This document shows, in pieces, positions 3 to 40,397 of a stretch of 64,000 bases of DNA. The translations under genes were made by a program, and so were the position numbers. The notes below the pieces were generated by a model that made no database searches, had not been told where the DNA came from, and saw only the letters and a list, made by a program, of their open reading frames with translations. How positions within the stretch are numbered: position 1 is the stretch's first letter; each line of letters begins with the position of its first letter. Source of the stretch: an uncultured Pirellulales bacterium (GTDB lineage Bacteria; Planctomycetota; Phycisphaerae; Sedimentisphaerales; Anaerobacaceae); contig CAZDQP010000001.1 in the NCBI GenBank assembly GCA_964507485.1, positions 753-64,752 on the forward strand. The letters are read 5' to 3'.

Positions 3-329
3 TTGCCTAACATTATAGTATGCCATAGTTGCGACAACCCTAAATGTGTTAATCCTAAGCATCTATTTTTATCAACACCAAAAGGCAATGCTTTAGATAG
101 AGAGTCCAAAAATCGACATCCACATATACAGACAGCGGATTTATCAGGAGAAAATAATCCAGCTTCTAAAATAAATCCTCTTATTGTACGCACGATACGA
201 AAATATAGAAAAAAAGGCCATACATATAGCCAATTAGTCGAGAGAATAGATTTTTCATTTAATGTAAAACTTTCCAAAAGCCAAATAGCAAATATTGTAC
301 ATAGGAGAAGTTGGAAAAATGTCGGATAA
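3..329 (+). CDS. HNH homing endonuclease, C-terminal part (5' end outside window)
   Basis: ORF is open to the window edge. It has the Cys/His motif CHSCDNPKCVNPKHLF followed by a basic helical tail. Confidence 0.55.
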   Translation: MPNIIVCHSCDNPKCVNPKHLFLSTPKGNALDRESKNRHPHIQTADLSGENNPASKINPLIVRTIRKYRKKGHTYSQLVERIDFSFNVKLSKSQIANIVHRRSWKNVG

Positions 330-1185
330 TTCTAAAATCGAATGGACTACTGCCACATGGTCGCCAGTTATCGGTTGCTCAAAGTGCTCGCCTGGCTGTG
401 ATAACTGTTACGCCGAGCGAATGGCTTGCAGGCTTAAAGGGATAGAAGAAGCAAAATTTGACGACATTAAAACTTATGCCCCACCTGACTCAACCTTTAA
501 TGAAAAATATATTAAAGTAATTAGCAATGGTAAATGGAATGGAAATATTGTTTGTGATGAATCAGTCCTTGATGCTCCCCTTCACTGGAAAAAGCCCCGC
601 AAGATTTTTGTCTGCTCGATGTCCGATTTATTCCATAAAAAAGTGCCTGATGAATTTATACACGAAGTATGGGACGTAATGAAAAAATGCCCCCAACATA
701 TATTCCAAGTTCTTACCAAAAGGCCGACACGAATGTATCGCGTTGTAAAAGAACACATATACAGAATGGAAGCGGCTGGTCATGCTATGGGTTTTTGGAG
801 TCATGTCTGGCTCGGAGTATCAATAAGCACACAAAAAGAGGCTGATGATAAGATACCGATTCTATTACAGATACCTGCGGCGATCCATTTTGTAAGTATC
901 GAGCCGATGCTGGAAGGAATAGATTTGCAAAATGTCGATTGGAATGGTTCGACAGGTTTATGCACATTAGATAATCCACCGATGCAAATTGGATGGGTTA
1001 TTGTCGGCGGCGAATCCGGTTCTAAGAGACGATGGTGCAATGAAAAGTGGGTAAAATCAATAGTAAGCCAATGCGAATCCGCAGGCGTACCTTGTTTTGT
1101 CAAACAAATACATCGTGCCGGCAAGTTAATAAAAATGCCTCCGGATTATCCACAGGAGTACCCGAATGAAGATAAAGACCTGTGA
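319..1185 (+). CDS. phage Gp37/Gp68 family protein (DUF5131)
   Basis: N-terminus SKIEWTTATWSPVIGCSKCSPGCDNCYAERMA is typical of the family and includes a CX3CX2C three-Cys motif. The ATG at 319 is preferred over the track start at 295. Confidence 0.8.
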   Translation: MSDNSKIEWTTATWSPVIGCSKCSPGCDNCYAERMACRLKGIEEAKFDDIKTYAPPDSTFNEKYIKVISNGKWNGNIVCDESVLDAPLHWKKPRKIFVCSMSDLFHKKVPDEFIHEVWDVMKKCPQHIFQVLTKRPTRMYRVVKEHIYRMEAAGHAMGFWSHVWLGVSISTQKEADDKIPILLQIPAAIHFVSIEPMLEGIDLQNVDWNGSTGLCTLDNPPMQIGWVIVGGESGSKRRWCNEKWVKSIVSQCESAGVPCFVKQIHRAGKLIKMPPDYPQEYPNEDKDL

Positions 1186-1492
1186 CCAATGCGGCAAGCC
1201 TAAGATACGCAAATCATCGAAAGAGCTTGATATATGCCAGTGTGATTTCGTGCATGAAAAGGAACTGGAAAATAAAATTAACTATGAACCAAAATTTGAA
1301 TGTCAGCGTTGTGGTCGATGTTGTATGCACATGCATTCAGACGATACGGGTATGCCTTGTGAATATCTACTTGTAAAAGATGGAATAGCAACCTGCTTAA
1401 TCCACGATAAGAAACCGGAAGTTTGCAGGAATTATCCCGACCACCCCGATTTCGGCGGGGAACCGTGTTTTTTCTATAAAGAAGAAATTTGA
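1166..1492 (+). CDS. YkgJ-like CxxCxxCC cysteine-cluster protein
   Basis: CQRCGRCC motif plus further Cys/His residues. Overlaps the upstream gene by 20 nt. Confidence 0.55.
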   Translation: MKIKTCDQCGKPKIRKSSKELDICQCDFVHEKELENKINYEPKFECQRCGRCCMHMHSDDTGMPCEYLLVKDGIATCLIHDKKPEVCRNYPDHPDFGGEPCFFYKEEI

Positions 1493-1503
1493 AATAAAAA
1501 CTC

Positions 1504-1532
1504 TTGACAAAACGGACTGAAAAGAGTAAGTT
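1504..1532 (+). promoter_or_regulatory. candidate sigma70-type promoter
   Basis: TTGACA (1504-1509), 17-nt spacer, TAAGTT (1527-1532). Lies in the intergenic gap upstream of the HNH-AP2 gene. Confidence 0.35.
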
Positions 1533-1537
1533 AGGGA

Positions 1538-1634
1538 TGACTGTATACGTAACATATAATTTAATATTTTTGGATCTGAGCCCCAAAGGTGTATTCCAAC
1601 CTCGTGTTGCGTATACAGTCAAGCCGATGGGGCT
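1538..1634 (+). promoter_or_regulatory. long imperfect inverted repeat / structured 5' leader
   Basis: 1538-1555 pairs with 1604-1621 (18 bp). The two non-Watson-Crick positions are G-U only on the + strand RNA. AGCCCCA (1579-1585) pairs with TGGGGCT (1628-1634) in a crossing, pseudoknot-like arrangement. Confidence 0.35.
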
Positions 1635-1656
1635 TATTTAATGCGCAAGGATTAAT

Positions 1657-2130
1657 ATGAAAACCATACCGCTTACACAAGGCAAATGTGCGATTGTTGA
1701 TGACGAAGATTATGAACAGCTTAATCAGTGGAAATGGATAGCCTGTAAAAGTCGCAATACATTTTATGCGGCTAAATCAGCTAAAATAAATGGATATTGG
1801 TCGACAAAAAAAATGCACCATTTCATTTTACCAAGTATTCCTAAAGGCTCAATGGTGGATCATAAAAATAGAAATGGCCTTGATAACAGAAAAAATAATT
1901 TACGAATATGTTCAATAGCACAAAATACAAGAAACCGCAAAACTCCTCCACATAGTAGTAAATACAAAGGAGTATGTTGGGAAGGCCGAAGAAAAGCATG
2001 GAGAGCATATATAACAATAAAAGGAAAATTTATACATATAGGTTATTTCAACAAAGAAGAGCGTGCTGCAATCGCTTATGATAAAGCTGCAAAAACATTA
2101 TTTGGCGAATTTGCCTATACTAATTTTTAA
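1657..2130 (+). CDS. HNH endonuclease with AP2-type DNA-binding domain
   Basis: HNH motif VDHKNRNGLDNRKNNLRICSIAQN, then the AP2-like segment YKGVCW...WRAYITIKGKFIHIGYF...AAIAYDKAAKTLFGEFAYTNF. Confidence 0.8.
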   Translation: MKTIPLTQGKCAIVDDEDYEQLNQWKWIACKSRNTFYAAKSAKINGYWSTKKMHHFILPSIPKGSMVDHKNRNGLDNRKNNLRICSIAQNTRNRKTPPHSSKYKGVCWEGRRKAWRAYITIKGKFIHIGYFNKEERAAIAYDKAAKTLFGEFAYTNF

Positions 2131-2141
2131 GTATTTATAGC

Positions 2142-2627
2142 ATGGATGCTAACATGAATAAAAGACCAGCGTTTCAGTTTTATCCGGCAGACTGGATAAA
2201 AGACCCGGATTTGCAAATGTGCAGTATGAGCACTATAGGTATTTGGATTAATTTAATATGCAGAATGTGGGAGGCAAAAGAACAGGGTAAAGTAAGGGGC
2301 ACAAAAGAAGAAATATGCCAAATAGTAGGATGTACAATTTCAGAACTCGCCCTCTTCTTTGACGATAATAATTTTCACAAATTTGCAAATGTAACAAAAC
2401 GTAACAAAAAAGTAACAATTATAAATAGGCGGATGTACAAGGACTATATCGAGCGTGAGAGTGTAAAAAAGAGGGTTTCAAGGCATAGAGAGAAAAGGAA
2501 ACGTAAATGTAACGCCAAAGTAACGCCTTATTCTTCTTCTTCACCTTCTTCTTCTCTCTCTCCTGAGATAGAGAGAATGTTACAAGAAGAAGGAAAAAGC
2601 ACTATTCATCCGTCACAAAAAAAATAG
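2142..2627 (+). CDS. DUF1376 (YdaU-like) phage protein
   Basis: Signature RPAFQFYPADWIKDPDLQMCS, with a Ser-rich basic tail. Confidence 0.6.
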   Translation: MDANMNKRPAFQFYPADWIKDPDLQMCSMSTIGIWINLICRMWEAKEQGKVRGTKEEICQIVGCTISELALFFDDNNFHKFANVTKRNKKVTIINRRMYKDYIERESVKKRVSRHREKRKRKCNAKVTPYSSSSPSSSLSPEIERMLQEEGKSTIHPSQKK

Positions 2628-2637
2628 GAATCTCAAA

Positions 2638-3147
2638 ATGGAATATCACGAAGTTGATGAAATATTAAGATACTTGAAAGAGTTATGGCCTCATTGGAAA
2701 TGGGCAGAAGATGAACAACCGAATCTTCAGACAAAAATCTGGAGAAATAAACTTTTCCCATTTAATTACAGTATCGCTATGCAGGCAATAGAGAATATTT
2801 ATAGTCACGGCCTGGCTGATTTCCAAAGGGAACTACTGCCGGCGTTTTTGAAAGAAGCTAATCGAATAGCAAAAAAATATTCTAAATTGATTGAGGCAAA
2901 AGAAAAACCTGAGCCTGTCTTGGTTTATACAATCGTAGACCAAAACAACGAAAAATGGAAAATGAGATTTTATCATCCTACAAAAATGCCCGAAGATAAA
3001 AACATATTAGCTCAGGAATCTTTCAATATGAAAGAACAAATCGAGCAGCAGTATAACCGTGATTGCTACATCGTCAGAAATTGGGAAGAATATCAAGAGC
3101 CTGTATATCAGGAAGTAGAATCTAATAATGATGACATACCATTTTAG
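2638..3147 (+). CDS. hypothetical protein
   Basis: 169-aa ORF in the operon context. No motif recognised. Confidence 0.5.
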   Translation: MEYHEVDEILRYLKELWPHWKWAEDEQPNLQTKIWRNKLFPFNYSIAMQAIENIYSHGLADFQRELLPAFLKEANRIAKKYSKLIEAKEKPEPVLVYTIVDQNNEKWKMRFYHPTKMPEDKNILAQESFNMKEQIEQQYNRDCYIVRNWEEYQEPVYQEVESNNDDIPF

Positions 3148-3161
3148 CAGGAGTTAAGAAA

Positions 3162-3275
3162 ATGAGAAAAGAATTTTGTGATTTTTGTAAAGATGAATTA
3201 GAAATAGCAGACCATATTGATAATAGTTTTTTTGGAAGAATTGAATATCCGATTTATCAAAACAAAAGGCAATGA
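3162..3275 (+). CDS. small CxxC ORF (37 aa), possibly truncated by the IS
   Basis: AGGAG RBS lies 8 nt upstream. The TGA stop lies inside the IS left inverted repeat. Confidence 0.3.
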   Translation: MRKEFCDFCKDELEIADHIDNSFFGRIEYPIYQNKRQ

Positions 3276-3290
3276 ATCACTTGGCTCACC
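3268..3290 (+). repeat. IS terminal inverted repeat (left)
   Basis: GGCAATGAATCACTTGGCTCACC, 21/23 identical to the copy at 8822-8844. Confidence 0.75.
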
Positions 3291-3328
3291 AAAAAAAGGC
3301 AAACAGATATGAGTAAAATGTGGATAAC

Positions 3329-3460
3329 TTATTTTTTGGACTTGCGGCGTTTCTTACGCTCTGCCTGTTCTTTAGCTATTTTTGCATTGACGATTTCTTT
3401 AGGCACAGCGACAAGTTTGCGTGCAAGTTCGTTGAATTTACCCAATCCTTTAGGCTTCAT
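3329..3460 (-). CDS. small basic ORF (43 aa) downstream of the transposase
   Basis: AAGGAG RBS 6 nt upstream of the ATG. Product is MKPKGLGKFNELARKLVAVPKEIV... Too short to appear in the ORF track. Confidence 0.4.
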   Translation of the reverse strand: MKPKGLGKFNELARKLVAVPKEIVNAKIAKEQAERKKRRKSKK

Positions 3461-3470
3461 ATTAGCTCCT

Positions 3471-4421
3471 TTATTCTTTTCCCATGAATCCAGCATCATC
3501 AATACCAGCGAGAAACCGATAAGTCAAACGCTTATTGAAAACCATACACAACAAAAACTCAAAACGGACACTATCAGTCCATTCCCGCATATTGAATCTG
3601 AATACCTGTTCGGCGACATAACGGAAAAGGTGATATGGTTCGACACTAACATAAGTTCCCTTAATTGCTCTTTTGAGCAGAGTCCAGAAATTCTCGATAC
3701 CGTTTGTGTGGACAATCCCATCAACATAGGCTTTAGAATGGTCAACAGCCCTGTGAGCGTGACTATTGATAAGCCTGTCGTATTCTCTGGCTTCATCGGT
3801 GAAAACTTCCGCACCATATTTTACAGACGATTTGACGCGGGCAAGGGATGTTTCTTCATCGTCGCGATTGACAACTTTGGCATTTACCTTGCTCGTTTCG
3901 ACTCTTTGCAGGATACCATGAACCGGTGTTTTGCCGACCGAGCCGCGTCCTTGAATGAGCTTTTCTCGGCGTTTGGTGTGCATATTCCTTGCCTGTCCGC
4001 CGATGTAGGTTGTATCGGCTTCAACAGGGCCGTCAAACTTCTCAGATTCGCATTCCATAGCTTTGCGGATACGATGAAGCATGAACCATGCCGTTCTTTG
4101 AGTGACGCCGATAGCCCGACTAAGCTCATGGCTGCTGATACCGTTCTTGCAGTTGGCGATTGCCCATACAGCGACAAACCATTTATCAAGTCCGAGGGGG
4201 CTATCCTCAAAGATTGTGCCGACTTTGGAGCTAAACTGTTTGCGGCAATCCTTACAACGGAGCATCCGGCGTGTTTTGATTTCGCCGATTCTCTTGCTTC
4301 CACAATTAGGGCAAACGGGTGGGTTGCCAGCCCAGCGGATTTCCCGCATATAGTTCTCACAAATATCGGGGTCTGCAAAGTATCGGGCGGCTTGCAAAAG
4401 TGTTTTGGGTGTTTTCATCAT
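3471..4421 (-). CDS. IS1595-family transposase
   Basis: N-terminal zinc ribbon CPNCGS...CKDCRKQFS, followed by a DDE-type body typical of IS1595/ISXO2-like transposases. Confidence 0.85.
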   Translation of the reverse strand: MMKTPKTLLQAARYFADPDICENYMREIRWAGNPPVCPNCGSKRIGEIKTRRMLRCKDCRKQFSSKVGTIFEDSPLGLDKWFVAVWAIANCKNGISSHELSRAIGVTQRTAWFMLHRIRKAMECESEKFDGPVEADTTYIGGQARNMHTKRREKLIQGRGSVGKTPVHGILQRVETSKVNAKVVNRDDEETSLARVKSSVKYGAEVFTDEAREYDRLINSHAHRAVDHSKAYVDGIVHTNGIENFWTLLKRAIKGTYVSVEPYHLFRYVAEQVFRFNMREWTDSVRFEFLLCMVFNKRLTYRFLAGIDDAGFMGKE

Positions 4422-4476
4422 CTACTCCTTGTTAATAACCTGTGTAAAACTAACTTCATTCTATCTATATATACGC

Positions 4477-4499
4477 GGTGAGTCAAGTACAAAATCAAA
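4477..4499 (-). repeat. degenerate IR-like copy
   Basis: GGTGAGTCAAGTAC... 11 of the 12 innermost positions match the IR and the outer half is diverged. Overlaps the methylase start. Confidence 0.4.
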
Positions 4500-5338
4500 A
4501 AAACATGATAAATTTACCAAAAAACCAAATAATTTGCGGAAATTGCGTAGAAATAATGGAGCAATGGCCTAACGATTGTTTGGATTTAACAGTAACTTCT
4601 CCACCATACGATGAATTAAGAGACTATAAAGGTTATCATTTTGATTTTGAGGGTATTGCCAAACAGCTATACAGAATAACAAAAAATGGTGTTGTTGTTG
4701 TTTGGGTGGTTGGGGACCAAGTAATAAACGGGAGTGAAAGCGGTACGAGCTTCAAGCAAGCATTATTTTTTAAGGAATGCGGTTTTAATCTACACGACAC
4801 GATGATTTATGAGAAAAACGGAGCATTGCCGGATAATTGCCGTTATTTTCAAATTTTCGAGTATATGTTTGTTTTGAGTAAGGGCCGGCCCAAAACAGTA
4901 AACTTCATAGAAGATAGAAAAAACCGATTCAAAGAGCGGTGGGGCAAAGGTCGTTGTGTAAGAGAAAAAGATGGGTCCCTTACGCCGAGAGACGAATGGA
5001 AGGGCAGGGAATACGGACGCCGAAATAATATTTGGAGATATAGTACAGGGGCAGGATATAGTTCAAAAGAGAAAGTAGCTTTTGAGCATCCAGCTACGTT
5101 TCCAGAGCTATTAGCACACGACCATATCAAGAGTTGGAGTAATTCCGGTGATATTGTTCTCGATTGTATGTGTGGAAGCGGTACAACCTGCAAAAGAGCG
5201 AAAATGTTAGGCCGCTGTTACATCGGCATAGATATAAGCCCTGAATATTGCAAATTATCAGAAGAACGGATTAAAGCGGTTATTACTGGCGTTTCTGTTA
5301 AAGAGGCCCGACAGGGCCAGAAAGCGTTATTTGAATGA
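4478..5338 (+). CDS. DNA methyltransferase (beta-class N4-C/N6-A type)
   Basis: Motif IV TSPPY lies near the N-terminus and motif I VLDCMCGSGTT near the C-terminus. GTG start at 4478, alternative ATG at 4505. Confidence 0.85.
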   Translation: MSQVQNQKNMINLPKNQIICGNCVEIMEQWPNDCLDLTVTSPPYDELRDYKGYHFDFEGIAKQLYRITKNGVVVVWVVGDQVINGSESGTSFKQALFFKECGFNLHDTMIYEKNGALPDNCRYFQIFEYMFVLSKGRPKTVNFIEDRKNRFKERWGKGRCVREKDGSLTPRDEWKGREYGRRNNIWRYSTGAGYSSKEKVAFEHPATFPELLAHDHIKSWSNSGDIVLDCMCGSGTTCKRAKMLGRCYIGIDISPEYCKLSEERIKAVITGVSVKEARQGQKALFE

Positions 5339-5341
5339 AAA

Positions 5342-5818
5342 ATGGTGAGCCAAGTGATTCAATACCATTACAAGAAATTAAGATGTTATCATTGGTATGC
5401 AGTCAAAAACAAAAGGACATACTACGCAGAACGATACGTCCGCATAATAAACAATAAACAAATAAGCATATTTATGCACAGAGAAATTTTAGGGCTTAAA
5501 TACAAAGATGGAAAAGTATCTGACCATATTAACGGTAATGGCTTAGACAACAGACGTTCTAATTTGCGGGTGTGTACTGCGTCTCAGAATGCATGGAACA
5601 GGCGAAGTAATAGTAAATGTGGATATAGAGGTGTGCGAAAGTTTTTTCATAGGTGGCAAGCAAGAATACAAGTTAATAGGAAGTGCAGGCATTTGGGTAT
5701 GTATGCTACCGCCATAGAAGCAGCTAAGGCATATGATAAAGCGGCCAAGAAACAATACGGTAAGTTTGCTTGTACTAATTTTTGTGCCGCTATCAAGGCA
5801 AAGGAGAAAGCCGAATGA
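5342..5818 (+). CDS. HNH-AP2 endonuclease with an IS-derived N-terminus
   Basis: Paralog of 1657-2130 (DHINGNGLDNRRSNLRVC...YRGV...AAKAYDKAAKKQYGKFACTNF). It lacks about 17 N-terminal residues. The first 8 codons are encoded by the IR. Confidence 0.75.
   Translation: MVSQVIQYHYKKLRCYHWYAVKNKRTYYAERYVRIINNKQISIFMHREILGLKYKDGKVSDHINGNGLDNRRSNLRVCTASQNAWNRRSNSKCGYRGVRKFFHRWQARIQVNRKCRHLGMYATAIEAAKAYDKAAKKQYGKFACTNFCAAIKAKEKAE
5344..5366 (-). repeat. IS terminal inverted repeat (right)
   Basis: GGTGAGCCAAGTGATTCAATACC. Its reverse complement is 23/23 identical to 8822-8844. Confidence 0.75.
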
Positions 5819-6051
5819 GTAAAAAAGTTGGTCCAACTAAAACAAAATCATATCTTATCTGTGCCAAATGTAAATATTTGGATTTTTGGTGTGGTATGTG
5901 CCAATGCTATGCAAGATGCAAACATCCAAAGTATAAAAAAAGAAAAACCGGCGAAAGAAATATAGGAACTTATGATAGAGGCAATGACAGGGGTGTACCC
6001 ACGCCAAAATGGTGTCCAATTATAAAACAGGAGACTTCCGATGGAAGATAA
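5815..6051 (+). CDS. small Cys-rich protein
   Basis: ATGA overlap with the upstream stop codon. Several CxxC motifs. Confidence 0.4.
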   Translation: MSKKVGPTKTKSYLICAKCKYLDFWCGMCQCYARCKHPKYKKRKTGERNIGTYDRGNDRGVPTPKWCPIIKQETSDGR

Positions 6052-6844
6052 AATAAAACAAGCGATAGAAATGCTGGAAAAAGCAAAACTGAATATAGAA
6101 TATGCCCGTGACTATTATCCAAAAGCGGATACGAAGATAAGCGAATTAAGACAATTAAACATAGCTATTGAATTTCTTGGTCAAGCTCTTGCCCTTCTCT
6201 CCAACTGTCAAGCCAAGCCGGAGTGCGAGACTTGCGAGTGGATATCAGTTAATGATAGATTGCCAAAAAGAGGTATGCAAGTTTTTATGATAGATGCTGA
6301 TACAGGTTATGCTTATGTGGGATGGATGGATGAGCCAAAAAACTGGTGGTATTTTACGGCAGATAAAGAGAAAAGTTTTCCATCAGATAATGGCAAAGAA
6401 ATAACACACTGGATGTCTGTAATTCCTCCCGACTGTCAAGGCAAGCCAGAGCAGCCGGAGAGTGAATTATGGAAAGAATGGAGTCGATTAAATTCAAGTG
6501 ATTGTTCAGATAGGGAGTGGATTGTTAATGCGGAAAAATTAATACCTATAATACTTAGAAAGCTCGAAGCCGCAGAGCGAGAGAATACTATACTCACAGG
6601 GCATATAATGGACGCTGACAACAAAGCACAGCAGCAGGCAGAGAGAATATCGCAGTTGGAGGATATATTCAATAAAATCGAGAATTGGTGTAAAGCATAT
6701 CCGATTGATATTTTTCCAAAACCAGATTTGAAAAAAGCACACACAGTATTGGAATCTGCTGGAATGACTCTTGACGCTATTACCGCTGATGCTATGCGCC
6801 ATGTGACCGACGGAATTAAAGATTTAATCGAAAAGAAAGGCTAA
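6041..6844 (+). CDS. DUF551-domain phage protein
   Basis: WISVNDRLPKRG...GWMDEPKNWWYF...EITHWMSVIPP matches the DUF551 pattern. C-terminal half looks coiled-coil. Confidence 0.55.
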   Translation: MEDKIKQAIEMLEKAKLNIEYARDYYPKADTKISELRQLNIAIEFLGQALALLSNCQAKPECETCEWISVNDRLPKRGMQVFMIDADTGYAYVGWMDEPKNWWYFTADKEKSFPSDNGKEITHWMSVIPPDCQGKPEQPESELWKEWSRLNSSDCSDREWIVNAEKLIPIILRKLEAAERENTILTGHIMDADNKAQQQAERISQLEDIFNKIENWCKAYPIDIFPKPDLKKAHTVLESAGMTLDAITADAMRHVTDGIKDLIEKKG

Positions 6845-6846
6845 GG

Positions 6847-7320
6847 ATGGCAAGTAATTTCGGACACGTCGAAAGAGTAACGGAGTGCGTAGGTGGTCGG
6901 GAGATAACTTTCAGATCCAAACTTGAATACCGCTGGGCACAATGGCTTGAGCTTGAAAAGCAACAGGGATATATACTCGAATGGTGGTACGAATCCCAGG
7001 ACACTTTATTACAAATTGAAACGCCTTATTTTCACAACCAAAAATTATACCTACCGGACTTCTGTGTCCAGATACTGGACGGCACTTGTGAGCTTCACGA
7101 ATGCAAAGGTTGGTTCACACCTAAAGATTACACAAAATTAAAGCTGGCTGCTCAACAATATAAAAATCCTATAACTCTGATATTCGCAAGTCTCAGCGAC
7201 CATAGCAAAAACAGCAAGACCCAGGCGCAGTACAGTAGAGCCAAGAGATTAGAGCCATTTCTAAAGCGTATAATTTACAATGCTAATCGTGACATATTCA
7301 GGAAGGCCGGAATAAAATAA
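6847..7320 (+). CDS. PD-(D/E)XK nuclease-like protein (DUF1064-like)
   Basis: FRSKLEYRWAQWLE...YLPDFCV...ELHECKG pattern. Confidence 0.45.
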   Translation: MASNFGHVERVTECVGGREITFRSKLEYRWAQWLELEKQQGYILEWWYESQDTLLQIETPYFHNQKLYLPDFCVQILDGTCELHECKGWFTPKDYTKLKLAAQQYKNPITLIFASLSDHSKNSKTQAQYSRAKRLEPFLKRIIYNANRDIFRKAGIK

Positions 7321-7333
7321 AGAATGGTGAAAA

Positions 7334-7531
7334 ATGAGAAAATATGCCTGTCCATTATCTGATAGTGGTATTTGTAAGTATGGGGGTAATAAACGATATA
7401 ATTATGGCTTTGTTTATGGGACAGGTAGTTATTGTTATCATCCAAGGCGCAAGCAGTTTATATACAATATGCTTAGAAAAGACCCAATAACATGCCCATT
7501 GAATGCAGAAGAAAAAAGCCTATACCAATAA
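7334..7531 (+). CDS. hypothetical small Cys-containing protein
   Basis: 65-aa ORF in the operon. Confidence 0.35.
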   Translation: MRKYACPLSDSGICKYGGNKRYNYGFVYGTGSYCYHPRRKQFIYNMLRKDPITCPLNAEEKSLYQ

Positions 7532-8797: not shown

Positions 8798-8821
8798 AAT
8801 ATACCTCACTTTCAAAAATAA

Positions 8822-8844
8822 GGTATTGAATCACTTGGCTCACC
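8822..8844 (+). repeat. MIC left inverted repeat
   Basis: GGTATTGAATCACTTGGCTCACC. Confidence 0.8.
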
Positions 8845-9451
8845 ATAAATCATCCACCTTTGGATAATCTTCTCTGACTATATCTGCACATTGTTTTAAT
8901 ATATTCTTTCGAGCAGCATCAGCAGCAGCATCAGCAGCAGCAGCAGCATCAGCAGCAGCAGCAGCATCAGCAGCAGCATCAGCAGCATCAGCAGCAGCAT
9001 CAGCAGCATAAGCAGCATAAGCAGCAGAATAAGCAGCAGCAGCAGCATCAGCAGCAGCAGCATCAGCAGCAGCAGCATCAGCAGCAGCAGCATCAGCAGC
9101 ATCAGCAGCATCAGCAGCAGCAATAACAGCAGAGCGAACGTCATTGAGATTAATATTATTTTCCCCCTTTGCCCATTGTTCGGCTGTTTCAATAGCTTTT
9201 AACGGTCTTTCTTCGTCCTTTTTTACATAAGACAAAACTAATCTGGCACATTTACAGGCAGTTAATACGAGCTGCTTTCTTTTTTCGTTGCCAAGCTCAC
9301 CGGATAGCTTTCCAATAAGCCACAGCATCCAGTCACCTCGCTTGCAATCCAACCACAAAGCTTGAGATGTTTTGTAATTGTGAGCTTCCTTAATAGCTTC
9401 TTCACAAGCACTCAATTTTTTAATTCTTGAAATATATTCGTTTATTTCCAT
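8840..9451 (-). CDS. passenger protein: helical N-domain plus Ala/Asp repeat region
   Basis: AAGGAG RBS 5 nt before the ATG at 9451. The TGA stop lies inside the IR. The middle of the protein is (A/D/Y)-only repeats. Confidence 0.6.
   Translation of the reverse strand: MEINEYISRIKKLSACEEAIKEAHNYKTSQALWLDCKRGDWMLWLIGKLSGELGNEKRKQLVLTACKCARLVLSYVKKDEERPLKAIETAEQWAKGENNINLNDVRSAVIAAADAADAADAAAADAAAADAAAADAAAAAYSAAYAAYAADAAADAADAAADAAAAADAAAAADAAADAARKNILKQCADIVREDYPKVDDLW
8913..9122. repeat. trinucleotide low-complexity tract (GCA/TCA)n
   Basis: About 210 nt of GCAGCAGCATCA-type repeats encode the Ala/Asp stretch. Shadow ORFs appear in the other frames. Confidence 0.9.
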
Positions 9452-9463
9452 TTTCACTCCTTT

Positions 9464-9486
9464 GGTGCGTCAAGTGATTCAACGCC
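9464..9486 (-). repeat. MIC right inverted repeat
   Basis: GGTGCGTCAAGTGATTCAACGCC. Its reverse complement matches the left IR at 19/23. Confidence 0.8.
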
Positions 9487-9524
9487 AAAAATAAAGCCCC
9501 GCCGTAACTACTATGATTCGGCAT

Positions 9525-39718: not shown

Positions 39719-39966
39719 AACGTCGTAATTTTCTAAAACTTGCTGGCATTGCAGTATTTGCGCCAACGAAATTGATAAATACATCCTCTATTTGTGGATG
39801 GAACTCCTATATAGTTAAGCATCTTACGCTTAATGAAGTGCAAAAAGAAATACTTAAGAAATCACACTCCAAAGTTGATAATTGGTTTTTATTTGAAGGT
39901 CGAAAAATATTTTATGCGTTAAATCACTTGACGCACCAAAGGAAGAAAAATGAAGAAGAAATGTAA
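39715..39966 (+). CDS. hypothetical protein with Tat/signal-like N-terminus
   Basis: MKRRNFLKLAGIAVFAP. Confidence 0.4.
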   Translation: MKRRNFLKLAGIAVFAPTKLINTSSICGWNSYIVKHLTLNEVQKEILKKSHSKVDNWFLFEGRKIFYALNHLTHQRKKNEEEM

Positions 39967-40360
39967 AAATTGTAAATGGTGGTTTCGGGGCCCAAAAGAC
40001 GATGGTACTGTAGATAAAAACGGAACATGTTACAGGTGCGCACCAAAGCCAGCAAGAATCACAAGAGAACAAGCGATTCAAGAGGACAATAACGGTTGGC
40101 CAATAACACGATGGCCAGAGACAGCAGAGTATATGGGCTGTGGCGATTTTACGAATAGAGATGAGCCCGATTTGAAACAATCAATAAGTGCCTTAAATTT
40201 GTCTGCGAGATTAAATAATGCTTTGTGGAGTGAGAATATCAGAACTGTTCAGCAATTGATTGATTTAGGGCGGCAAAACGCAAAACGAATACGGATGATT
40301 GGCAGCGCCAGTATTAGAGAAGTAAGCAGAAAATTAGCAAAAATTGGAATAATCTGGTGA
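39950..40360 (+). CDS. zinc-finger protein with RNA polymerase alpha-CTD-like helix-hairpin-helix domain
   Basis: CKNCKWW...CYRC, then LNLSARLNNALWSENIRTVQQLIDL...IGSASIREVSRKLAKIG. The TGA stop lies inside a solo IS inverted repeat. Confidence 0.45.
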   Translation: MKKKCKNCKWWFRGPKDDGTVDKNGTCYRCAPKPARITREQAIQEDNNGWPITRWPETAEYMGCGDFTNRDEPDLKQSISALNLSARLNNALWSENIRTVQQLIDLGRQNAKRIRMIGSASIREVSRKLAKIGIIW

Positions 40361-40378
40361 GCCAAGTGATTCAATACC
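40356..40378 (-). repeat. solo IS inverted-repeat copy
   Basis: GGTGAGCCAAGTGATTCAATACC. The 26 bp at 40355-40380 are identical to 5343-5368. Confidence 0.7.
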
Positions 40379-40397
40379 ATATTTTATAAAAATATGT

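Follow-up and report, generated by a model that had tools for sequence, protein, structure and literature searches.

Introduction

Transporter insertion sequences and non-autonomous cassettes are both established kinds of mobile element. The transporter IS (tIS) was reportedly distinguished by Siguier, Gagnevin and Chandler in 2009 for passenger-carrying members of the IS1595 family, in groups such as ISNwi1+, ISPna2+ and ISNha5, and the mobile insertion cassettes (MICs), for example MIC231 of IS231 in the Bacillus cereus group, and the miniature inverted-repeat transposable elements (MITEs) belong to the non-autonomous kind. In the genomes of phages, insertion sequences (ISs) are regarded as uncommon and costly. 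We describe here three elements of one IS1595 clade in a single temperate phage. They lie in the 64,000-nucleotide stretch that was analysed (the window), which makes up most of a 66,821 bp contig (C1) in the metagenome-assembled genome (MAG) of an uncultured Pirellulales bacterium. The first of them, unit A (3268-5366), carries an IS1595-type transposase gene and a DNA methyltransferase (methylase) gene between one pair of inverted terminal repeats (arms), and the other two, cassettes B and C, have the same arms and no transposase. The first 30 nt of C1 are repeated at 66,727, 95 nt before the contig end, which indicates that a full-length phage genome of ~66.7 kb, circular or terminally redundant, was binned with the 2.7-Mb MAG. 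Genes for a large terminase, a portal protein and an integrase mark C1 as the genome of a temperate phage.

The features of the IS1595 family have been summarised, and an N-terminal zinc ribbon is found in all of its groups but IS1016 (PMC8101967). Unit A resembles the tIS in that its transposase combines a zinc ribbon with a DDE_Tnp_IS1595 domain, its ends begin with GG and a passenger lies inside the terminal repeats, and the target site duplications (TSDs) of 8 bp at its relatives and at cassettes B and C add to the likeness. However, unit A itself has no TSD, is without the leader and one end of its closest intact relatives and looks like a fusion, and the clade to which it belongs is found mainly in phages, includes a conserved second gene of 43 aa and has an open frame running from arm to arm antisense to the transposase. 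Unit A is, thus, a somewhat irregular case of a passenger-carrying IS1595 element, and it is the conservation of the antisense frame across the clade that is unexpected.

Cassettes B and C, and cassettes in other phages that carry methylase genes, are like MICs in consisting of IS ends around one gene that does not encode a transposase, with TSDs, and arm pairs of 262-265 bp that enclose no gene resemble MITEs. They differ from the MICs in belonging to IS1595 rather than IS4, in residing in phages and in having arms that overlap the stop codon of the cargo and often supply an outward ATG. The methylase shares with the orphan beta-class phage methyltransferases (MTases; compare M.MboIIA, M.RsrI and 8s9m/8s9n) the order SPPY ... 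FxGxG and the lack of a restriction partner nearby, but it is located inside transposon ends. As to the antisense frame, Rak et al. are said to have found in 1982 that IS5 has oppositely oriented, overlapping genes. The likeness is a long open frame opposite the transposase, though in the clade examined here the frame spans the whole element and its variable cargo, beginning beside one arm and terminating within or close to the other. Nothing specific to phage-borne IS1595 cassettes was found in the literature.

Ends and gene content of unit A

When the region 2800-5900 was searched for inverted repeats, the best pair was 3265-3291 with 5343-5369 (27 nt, 89 %), and direct comparison of the two 23-nt arms gave 21/23 matches (GGCAATGAATCACTTGGCTCACC versus GGTATTGAATCACTTGGCTCACC), with GG at the start of both. 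This agrees with the arm pair that the initial annotation, made from the sequence alone, had given as the best available. The transposase encoded between the arms matches DDE_Tnp_IS1595 (PF12762) over profile positions 3-153 of 153 (5e-38), the zinc ribbon Zn_ribbon_IS1595 (PF12760) over residues 21-62 (6e-12) and the NCBIfam model for IS1595 transposases, NF033547, with 175 bits against a cut-off of 75, leaving little doubt about the family. The enclosed methylase is complete and matches N6_N4_Mtase (PF01555; 2e-40, residues 36-263) and phrog_67 (2e-50). Hence, the assignment to IS1595 and the content of one transposase, a 43-aa open reading frame (ORF) and a complete methylase were all predicted correctly. 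The 43-aa ORF, orf43, matches no Pfam or PHROG family; the same ORF lies directly downstream of the transposase in ~18 related loci identified by tblastn and in L173 (L numbers denote loci outside this MAG), and it is a conserved backbone gene of this IS clade. The coordinates of all features are listed in Table 1.

The transposase gene is present in a single copy in the MAG, where no second copy of the transposase-methylase unit was found. The absence of a clean TSD, also noticed at the outset, held for both candidate right ends, since AAACAAAA next to the left arm corresponds neither to ATTACAAG after the right arm nor to AAAACATG after the internal arm copy considered below. Unit A, therefore, cannot be shown to be a simple insertion. 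The assignment of its ends to the family nevertheless stands because 8-bp duplications are present at cassettes B and C and at the relatives. The tip GGCAATGAATCA of the left arm is common to the transposase-distal end (right inverted repeat, IRR) of L173, an element from the same genus.

Table 1. Positions in the window of the features of unit A, the adjoining endonuclease gene and cassettes B and C
Feature	Position	Strand	Description
Left arm of unit A	3268-3290		GGCAATGAATCACTTGGCTCACC; transposase-distal end (IRR) of the IS
Antisense frame	3309-4481	+	390 aa, codon-aligned antisense to the transposase
orf43	3329-3460	-	Basic 43-aa ORF with AAGGAG in front
Transposase	3471-4421	-	IS1595 family, 316 aa, full length
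Predicted promoter/sub-terminal repeat module	4458-4499	-	TGATTTTGT-ACTTGACTCACC-17 nt-TAGAAT
Methylase	4505-5338 (ORF from 4478)	+	Beta-class N6/N4 DNA methyltransferase, 277 aa from ATG 4505
HNH_3/AP2 endonuclease gene	5342-5818	+	Pfam assignment; ~17 N-terminal codons lost
Right arm of unit A	5344-5366		GGTGAGCCAAGTGATTCAATACC; 5 nt past the methylase stop
Cassette B	8822-9486	-	665 bp, arms 19/23, one 205-aa gene, no transposase
Cassette C	39915-40378	+	464 bp, arms 17/23, one 136-aa gene, no transposase

A clade of IS1595-type elements in phages

An 18-mer representing the arm, GGTGAGCCAAGTGATTCA, has six matches with three or fewer mismatches in the window, where 0.05 would be expected, and in the MAG it is found only on C1. 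The four sites outside unit A (8827-8844, 9464-9481, 39920-39937 and 40356-40373) delimit cassettes B and C, which are flanked by perfect 8-bp duplications, AAAAATAA for B (8814-8821 and 9487-9494) and ATATTTTA for C (39907-39914 and 40379-40386). In both, one arm directly precedes AAAGGAG-N-ATG and the other provides the stop codon of the cargo gene (TGG TGA in GGTGAG). B and C are, thus, transposase-less cassettes of the MIC type, and the transposase that matches their arms is the one in unit A of the same phage. Together with the methylase cassettes of other phages they have presumably moved in trans. The left tip of C is TG rather than GG.

Sixty-seven loci with relatives of the transposase, sharing up to 75 % identity in the best segment, were found in IMG/VR, most of them elements of 1.7-3.1 kb with 8-bp duplications. 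TSDs were seen, among the relatives, at L006, L007, L010/L011, L018, L035 and L173. The arm consensus of the IMG/VR elements is GG-N3-T/A-A-N-ACTTGRCNCACC. A degenerate pattern for the arm matched 92 IMG/VR stretches, and pairing of these revealed 11 more elements with a TSD of at least 7/8 and lengths of 262-1686 bp, which range from MITE-like elements of 262-265 bp over single-gene elements of 419-741 bp to elements of 1.3-1.7 kb. The IS is also present in genomes from the family of the MAG, and one of them, G016 from the same genus, includes a 1,760-bp copy that shares 71 % DNA identity with window positions 3266-4391 and is flanked by the TSD TTCCCTTA. Taken over these loci, the arm is the terminal repeat of a whole phage-living clade of IS1595-type elements, which is common in uncultured phages. 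A difference between TTGAC and TTGGC as a marker of left and right arms was considered and discarded, as it is not maintained in the relatives.

Passenger genes, named in the initial annotation as a feature of IS1595 members, are the rule in this clade. The cargo of the relatives is varied and includes DUF3800, a Schlafen-AlbA_2/HATPase_c_4 protein, a PAPS-reductase-like protein, an HTH-HNH protein and many unknowns. The clade shuttles single accessory genes between phages, among them genes for methylases and for RNA-polymerase alpha-CTD-like, DUF3800 and Schlafen/AlbA-type proteins, and this is a concrete way in which "moron" and anti-restriction genes are turned over.

Several further observations concern the arms and cassettes. 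An outward ATG can be formed by AT and the first G of an arm, followed by stop-free reading through the arm. Translation signals at the inner edge of arms, whether such an ATG or the cargo stop in GGTGAG, were seen in the window at 5342-5366, 8822-8846 and 40356-40378 and also in L007, L010, L017, L019, L024, L089, L131, L137 and L139. Of 125 distinct arms, 64 are preceded by AT or TT, dinucleotides with a background frequency of 7-9 % each. On a 3.2-kb metagenome contig, L131, two cassettes (990-1727 and 2074-2881) lie ~350 bp apart, one with a methylase gene and one with another gene, each with a separate 8-bp duplication, and this suggests hot regions where such cassettes pile up.

The internal arm copy

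A third stretch of arm sequence lies within unit A (4477-4499), and its part at 4477-4488, GGTGAGTCAAGT, matches the arm in 11 of the 12 innermost positions, as had been counted before. It was proposed to be an older right end of the IS, beyond which the methylase was captured. However, the copy is part of a larger module on the strand of the transposase in which ACTTGACTCACC, a copy of the arm core, contains the -35 box TTGACT. Located 57 nt in front of the transposase ATG, the module scores best (10/12) of all sigma-70-like sites between 3100 and 5500. In the intact elements L173, L174 and L175 the order is an end, a leader of ~110 nt, TGATTTTRY-ACTTGACACACC, 17 nt, a -10 box, cargo, transposase, orf43 and the other end, and the same module with the same flank is found ~120 nt inside the left end of these three, of L025 and of others. 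Because intact relatives hold it in the same position and with the same flank, the internal copy is, with high confidence, best read as the promoter module of the element itself and not as a decayed or truncated terminal arm, and neither the older right end nor a terminus of any kind at 4477-4499 can be retained. In many IMG/VR relatives the arm core recurs once or twice in a sub-terminal position, 45-120 nt inward of the transposase-proximal end, and the internal copy of unit A is probably also a second binding site for the transposase. Unit A lacks the remainder of the leader and the transposase-proximal end, and where these would lie it has the methylase, on the opposite strand, followed by an arm.

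Origin of unit A

Phage genes near unit A all read rightward (295-3147, a small ORF at 3162-3275 and 5342-7531), and the gene immediately to its right, which encodes an HNH_3/AP2 endonuclease, is clearly truncated. Its five closest homologs (P0122-P0126, 63-72 % identity) all have ~17 additional N-terminal residues, MKxIxLTQGKxAIVDDED, whereas the start codon used here consists of AT and the first G of the right arm, from which the gene reads out through the arm in frame (MVSQVIQYH-YKKL...). Apart from the paralog at 1657, the missing 5' piece is nowhere on the contig. The small ORF 3162-3275, which stops at a TGA (3273-3275) inside the left arm, was considered as a source of the HNH N-terminus and rejected; the join left by excision of 3268-5366 would be in frame, yet there is no resemblance to MKxIxLTQGKxAIVDDED. 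As the HNH piece is lost and absent elsewhere on the contig, phage DNA adjoining unit A has been deleted.

The methylase end of unit A looks to be derived from a cassette. Cassettes with these arms and with TSDs carry shorter methylases of the same family in L089 (ATAAAAAA), L131a (ATAATAAA), L137, L139 and L178. Both termini of these proteins, MKELPINQIIC... at the N-terminal and ...VKEARxGQxALFE at the C-terminal side, have their homologous counterparts in the window methylase, and the gap between stop codon and arm is 5-17 nt in these cassettes and 5 nt in the window. Compared with the arms on the stop side of B and of C, the right arm of unit A is identical in 23/23 positions. The window methylase starts 23 nt past the stop of the antisense frame and is without a Shine-Dalgarno sequence, which is present in the neighbouring genes looked at and in front of the genes that B, C and the methylase cassettes carry.

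We favour, with about half of our confidence, a history in which one deletion joined an IS to a methylase cassette next to it and so gave rise to unit A. The left 1.2 kb would be what is left of an autonomous IS, namely the backbone with its end repeat, orf43, transposase and promoter module, and the right 0.87 kb would be the gene and the stop-side arm of a transposase-less methylase cassette from the lineage of B and C. The cassette may have entered the HNH gene near codon 17, at ATTACAAG, and the IS may have inserted upstream of it at AAACAAAA, after which a single deletion from the IS leader (~4500) to just before the methylase ATG would have taken the IS end, both inner copies of the target duplications, the phage DNA in between with the 5' end of the HNH gene and, from the cassette, the arm on the start side and the ribosome-binding site. 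With two ordinary insertions and one deletion, this is the most economical history, and it would account for the unmatched flanks and the cut HNH gene, for the absence of the leader, the IS end and the start-side arm, and for the lack of a ribosome-binding site in front of the methylase. The arm lineages fit too, the right arm being of the B/C type and the left tip that of the L173 IRR, as does the G+C content of 47 % for the transposase, 40 % for the methylase and 41 % for the window. Of the possibilities raised in the initial annotation, that of two adjacent elements comes closest, though without 4477-4499 as an end. If this history is true, unit A illustrates one way in which a passenger-carrying IS may arise, namely by fusion of an IS with a neighbouring cassette.

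Several points weigh against a fusion. The closest methylases in protein searches are P0001 (79 %), P0002 (75 %) and P0019 (82 % over 70 % of the length), and the closest with visible context, that of L092 (78 % amino acid identity), is an ordinary gene of a phage operon without arms, and hence the window methylase need not be derived from a cassette. The methylases found in cassettes are not as long as that of the window and lie further from it, at 56-76 % identity in the best segment. The difference in G+C between transposase and methylase is modest, and the end-points of the deletion are reconstructed rather than observed. No phage relative was found, and so there is neither an empty site nor an intermediate at hand: megablast against phage records detected no close relative of the C1 phage, the flanking phage proteins detected none in IMG/VR, and DNA searches of 276 genomes from the same family matched only fragments of the IS and the methylase.

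A true passenger accounts for this structure almost equally well, and this too counts against the fusion. Here, a 2.1-kb cargo-bearing IS1595 element formed elsewhere would have arrived whole, and a later adjacent deletion would have removed one TSD copy and the 5' end of the HNH gene. It is a serious rival, though the less likely of the two. It draws on arms that are intact at 21/23 with everything between them, on relatives of 1.7-3.1 kb with varied cargo inside the arms, some of it on the opposite strand, and on the methylases that travel with these arms elsewhere, and IS-adjacent deletions are a common by-product of IS activity. However, unit A has no TSD, and neither a second site of the unit nor an empty site was found with which to establish it as a tIS. 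The search for the same transposase-methylase unit in other replicons, suggested in the initial annotation, did not find it in the IMG/VR transposase loci or in the same-family genomes, and in none of the IMG/VR loci examined does this methylase lie inside an element with a transposase relative. The ~100 nt leader of the intact relatives is gone with the methylase exactly in its place, the arm on the methylase side is that of the cassette lineage, and the methylase lacks a ribosome-binding site, whereas the genes carried by B, C and the methylase cassettes have one. The claim that the methylase is cargo of the IS can, therefore, be upheld in part. The only intact pair of ends does enclose it and methylases are recurrent cargo of such ends, but joint movement of the two genes found no support, given the missing TSD, the cut HNH gene and the lack of a relative with this methylase.

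That the methylase is instead native to the phage, an ancestral gene upstream of the HNH gene, with the right arm as a solo remnant of an element once inserted in the HNH gene and the IS as an independent insertion that has lost its end, seems improbable to us. The operon gene in L092, whose homology to the window methylase ends exactly at the start and stop codons, speaks for it, as do the G+C content, which equals that of the phage, and an orientation co-directional with the early operon. Yet two independent deletions would be needed, one 5 nt past the stop codon and one just before the ATG, the junction of stop codon and arm would mimic that of the methylase cassettes by coincidence, and the methylase lacks a Shine-Dalgarno sequence, which the neighbouring genes looked at have. 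Still more remote, and in our judgement scarcely credible, is that the repeats are regulatory or recombination sites of the phage (operator-like or for an invertase) rather than transposon ends. Though sites at gene boundaries that overlap start and stop codons and include a -35-like TTGAC would be in keeping with this, the perfect 8-bp duplications found here and in many unrelated phages of very different G+C content, the dozens of loci in which the same ends flank a full-length IS1595 transposase and the absence of the motif from the rest of the MAG all argue against it.

By analogy with the family, the transposase would bind the 23-bp arms, cut at the GG tips and insert the element with 8-bp staggered cuts. 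With two intact arms, unit A, whether or not it arose by the fusion favoured above, could in principle move transposase and methylase together, and the transposase could mobilise B in trans, the tip of C being mutated. The methylase would be read from the rightward early transcript of the phage. In its translation SPPY precedes DCMCGSGTT (motif IV N-terminal to motif I, FxGxG), and its relatives in the PDB are the N4-cytosine MTases 8s9m/8s9n and also M.MboIIA and M.RsrI. SPPY hints, tentatively, at N4-cytosine as the target base. Judged from its enzyme class, the methylase would shield the DNA of the phage, and host DNA that it meets, from restriction.

An open frame antisense to the transposase

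Opposite the transposase, an open frame in the direction of the phage operon extends from just inside the left arm to the TGA in GGTGAG of the internal arm copy (4479-4481). Read rightward, 3276-4478 includes no stop codon in this frame and 21 and 28 in the other two. As the frame is codon-aligned with the transposase gene and free of stops, the transposase gene has no TTA, CTA or TCA codons. Over the 24 transposases of the clade that were examined none of these codons occurs, although position-specific base composition predicts 108 in sum, and for two of the 24 with a G+C content at third codon positions of 0.48, where 8.6 such codons would be expected in each, the number is again zero. More distant IS1595 transposases have 2-18 stops in the corresponding frame. 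Of 27 delimited elements, 14 have an antisense frame that takes up 93-99 % of their length, variable cargo included. The frame is present at L173:958-2598 on the minus strand, where it is 546 aa long, at L076:2096-5236, also on the minus strand, and elsewhere. In unit A, the rightward strand is 97 % coding, first with the antisense frame and then with the methylase.

In these elements the strand of the transposase is densely filled with genes, and cargo and transposase stay in one frame with each other and avoid TTA, CTA and TCA codons. We suggest, tentatively and from these sequence patterns, that the clade may be built for the passage of ribosomes in either direction, with a stop codon and, in many cases, an outward ATG provided by the arms. 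The antisense frame may instead encode a real protein, though it matches no Pfam family. If the former is true, insertion into a packed phage operon would avoid a long untranslated stretch and Rho-dependent polarity downstream, and could restart translation of the interrupted gene, as at the HNH gene; a two-strand layout of this kind would explain why the elements are tolerated inside phage operons. A one-sided form of the anti-polarity prediction, in which flanking genes always lie antisense to the transposase, was not borne out, as relatives occur in both orientations by a measure that is noisy in high-G+C contigs.

Cargo of cassettes B and C and the HNH paralogs

The cargo gene of cassette C (39950-40360, plus strand) encodes a protein with a Cys-rich N-terminus and a match to the RNA polymerase alpha C-terminal domain (Pfam, 6e-12), which makes it a candidate for a mobile, phage-borne decoy or modulator of host transcription. 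The 205-aa product of cassette B (8840-9457, minus strand) is rich in Ala and Asp over a long repeat region, and its Imm5-like match to an immunity protein (Pfam, 6e-4) is weak, falling under the family cut-off. The early region of the phage includes two HNH_3/AP2 paralogs, at 1657-2130 and 5342-5818, which are ~3 kb apart.

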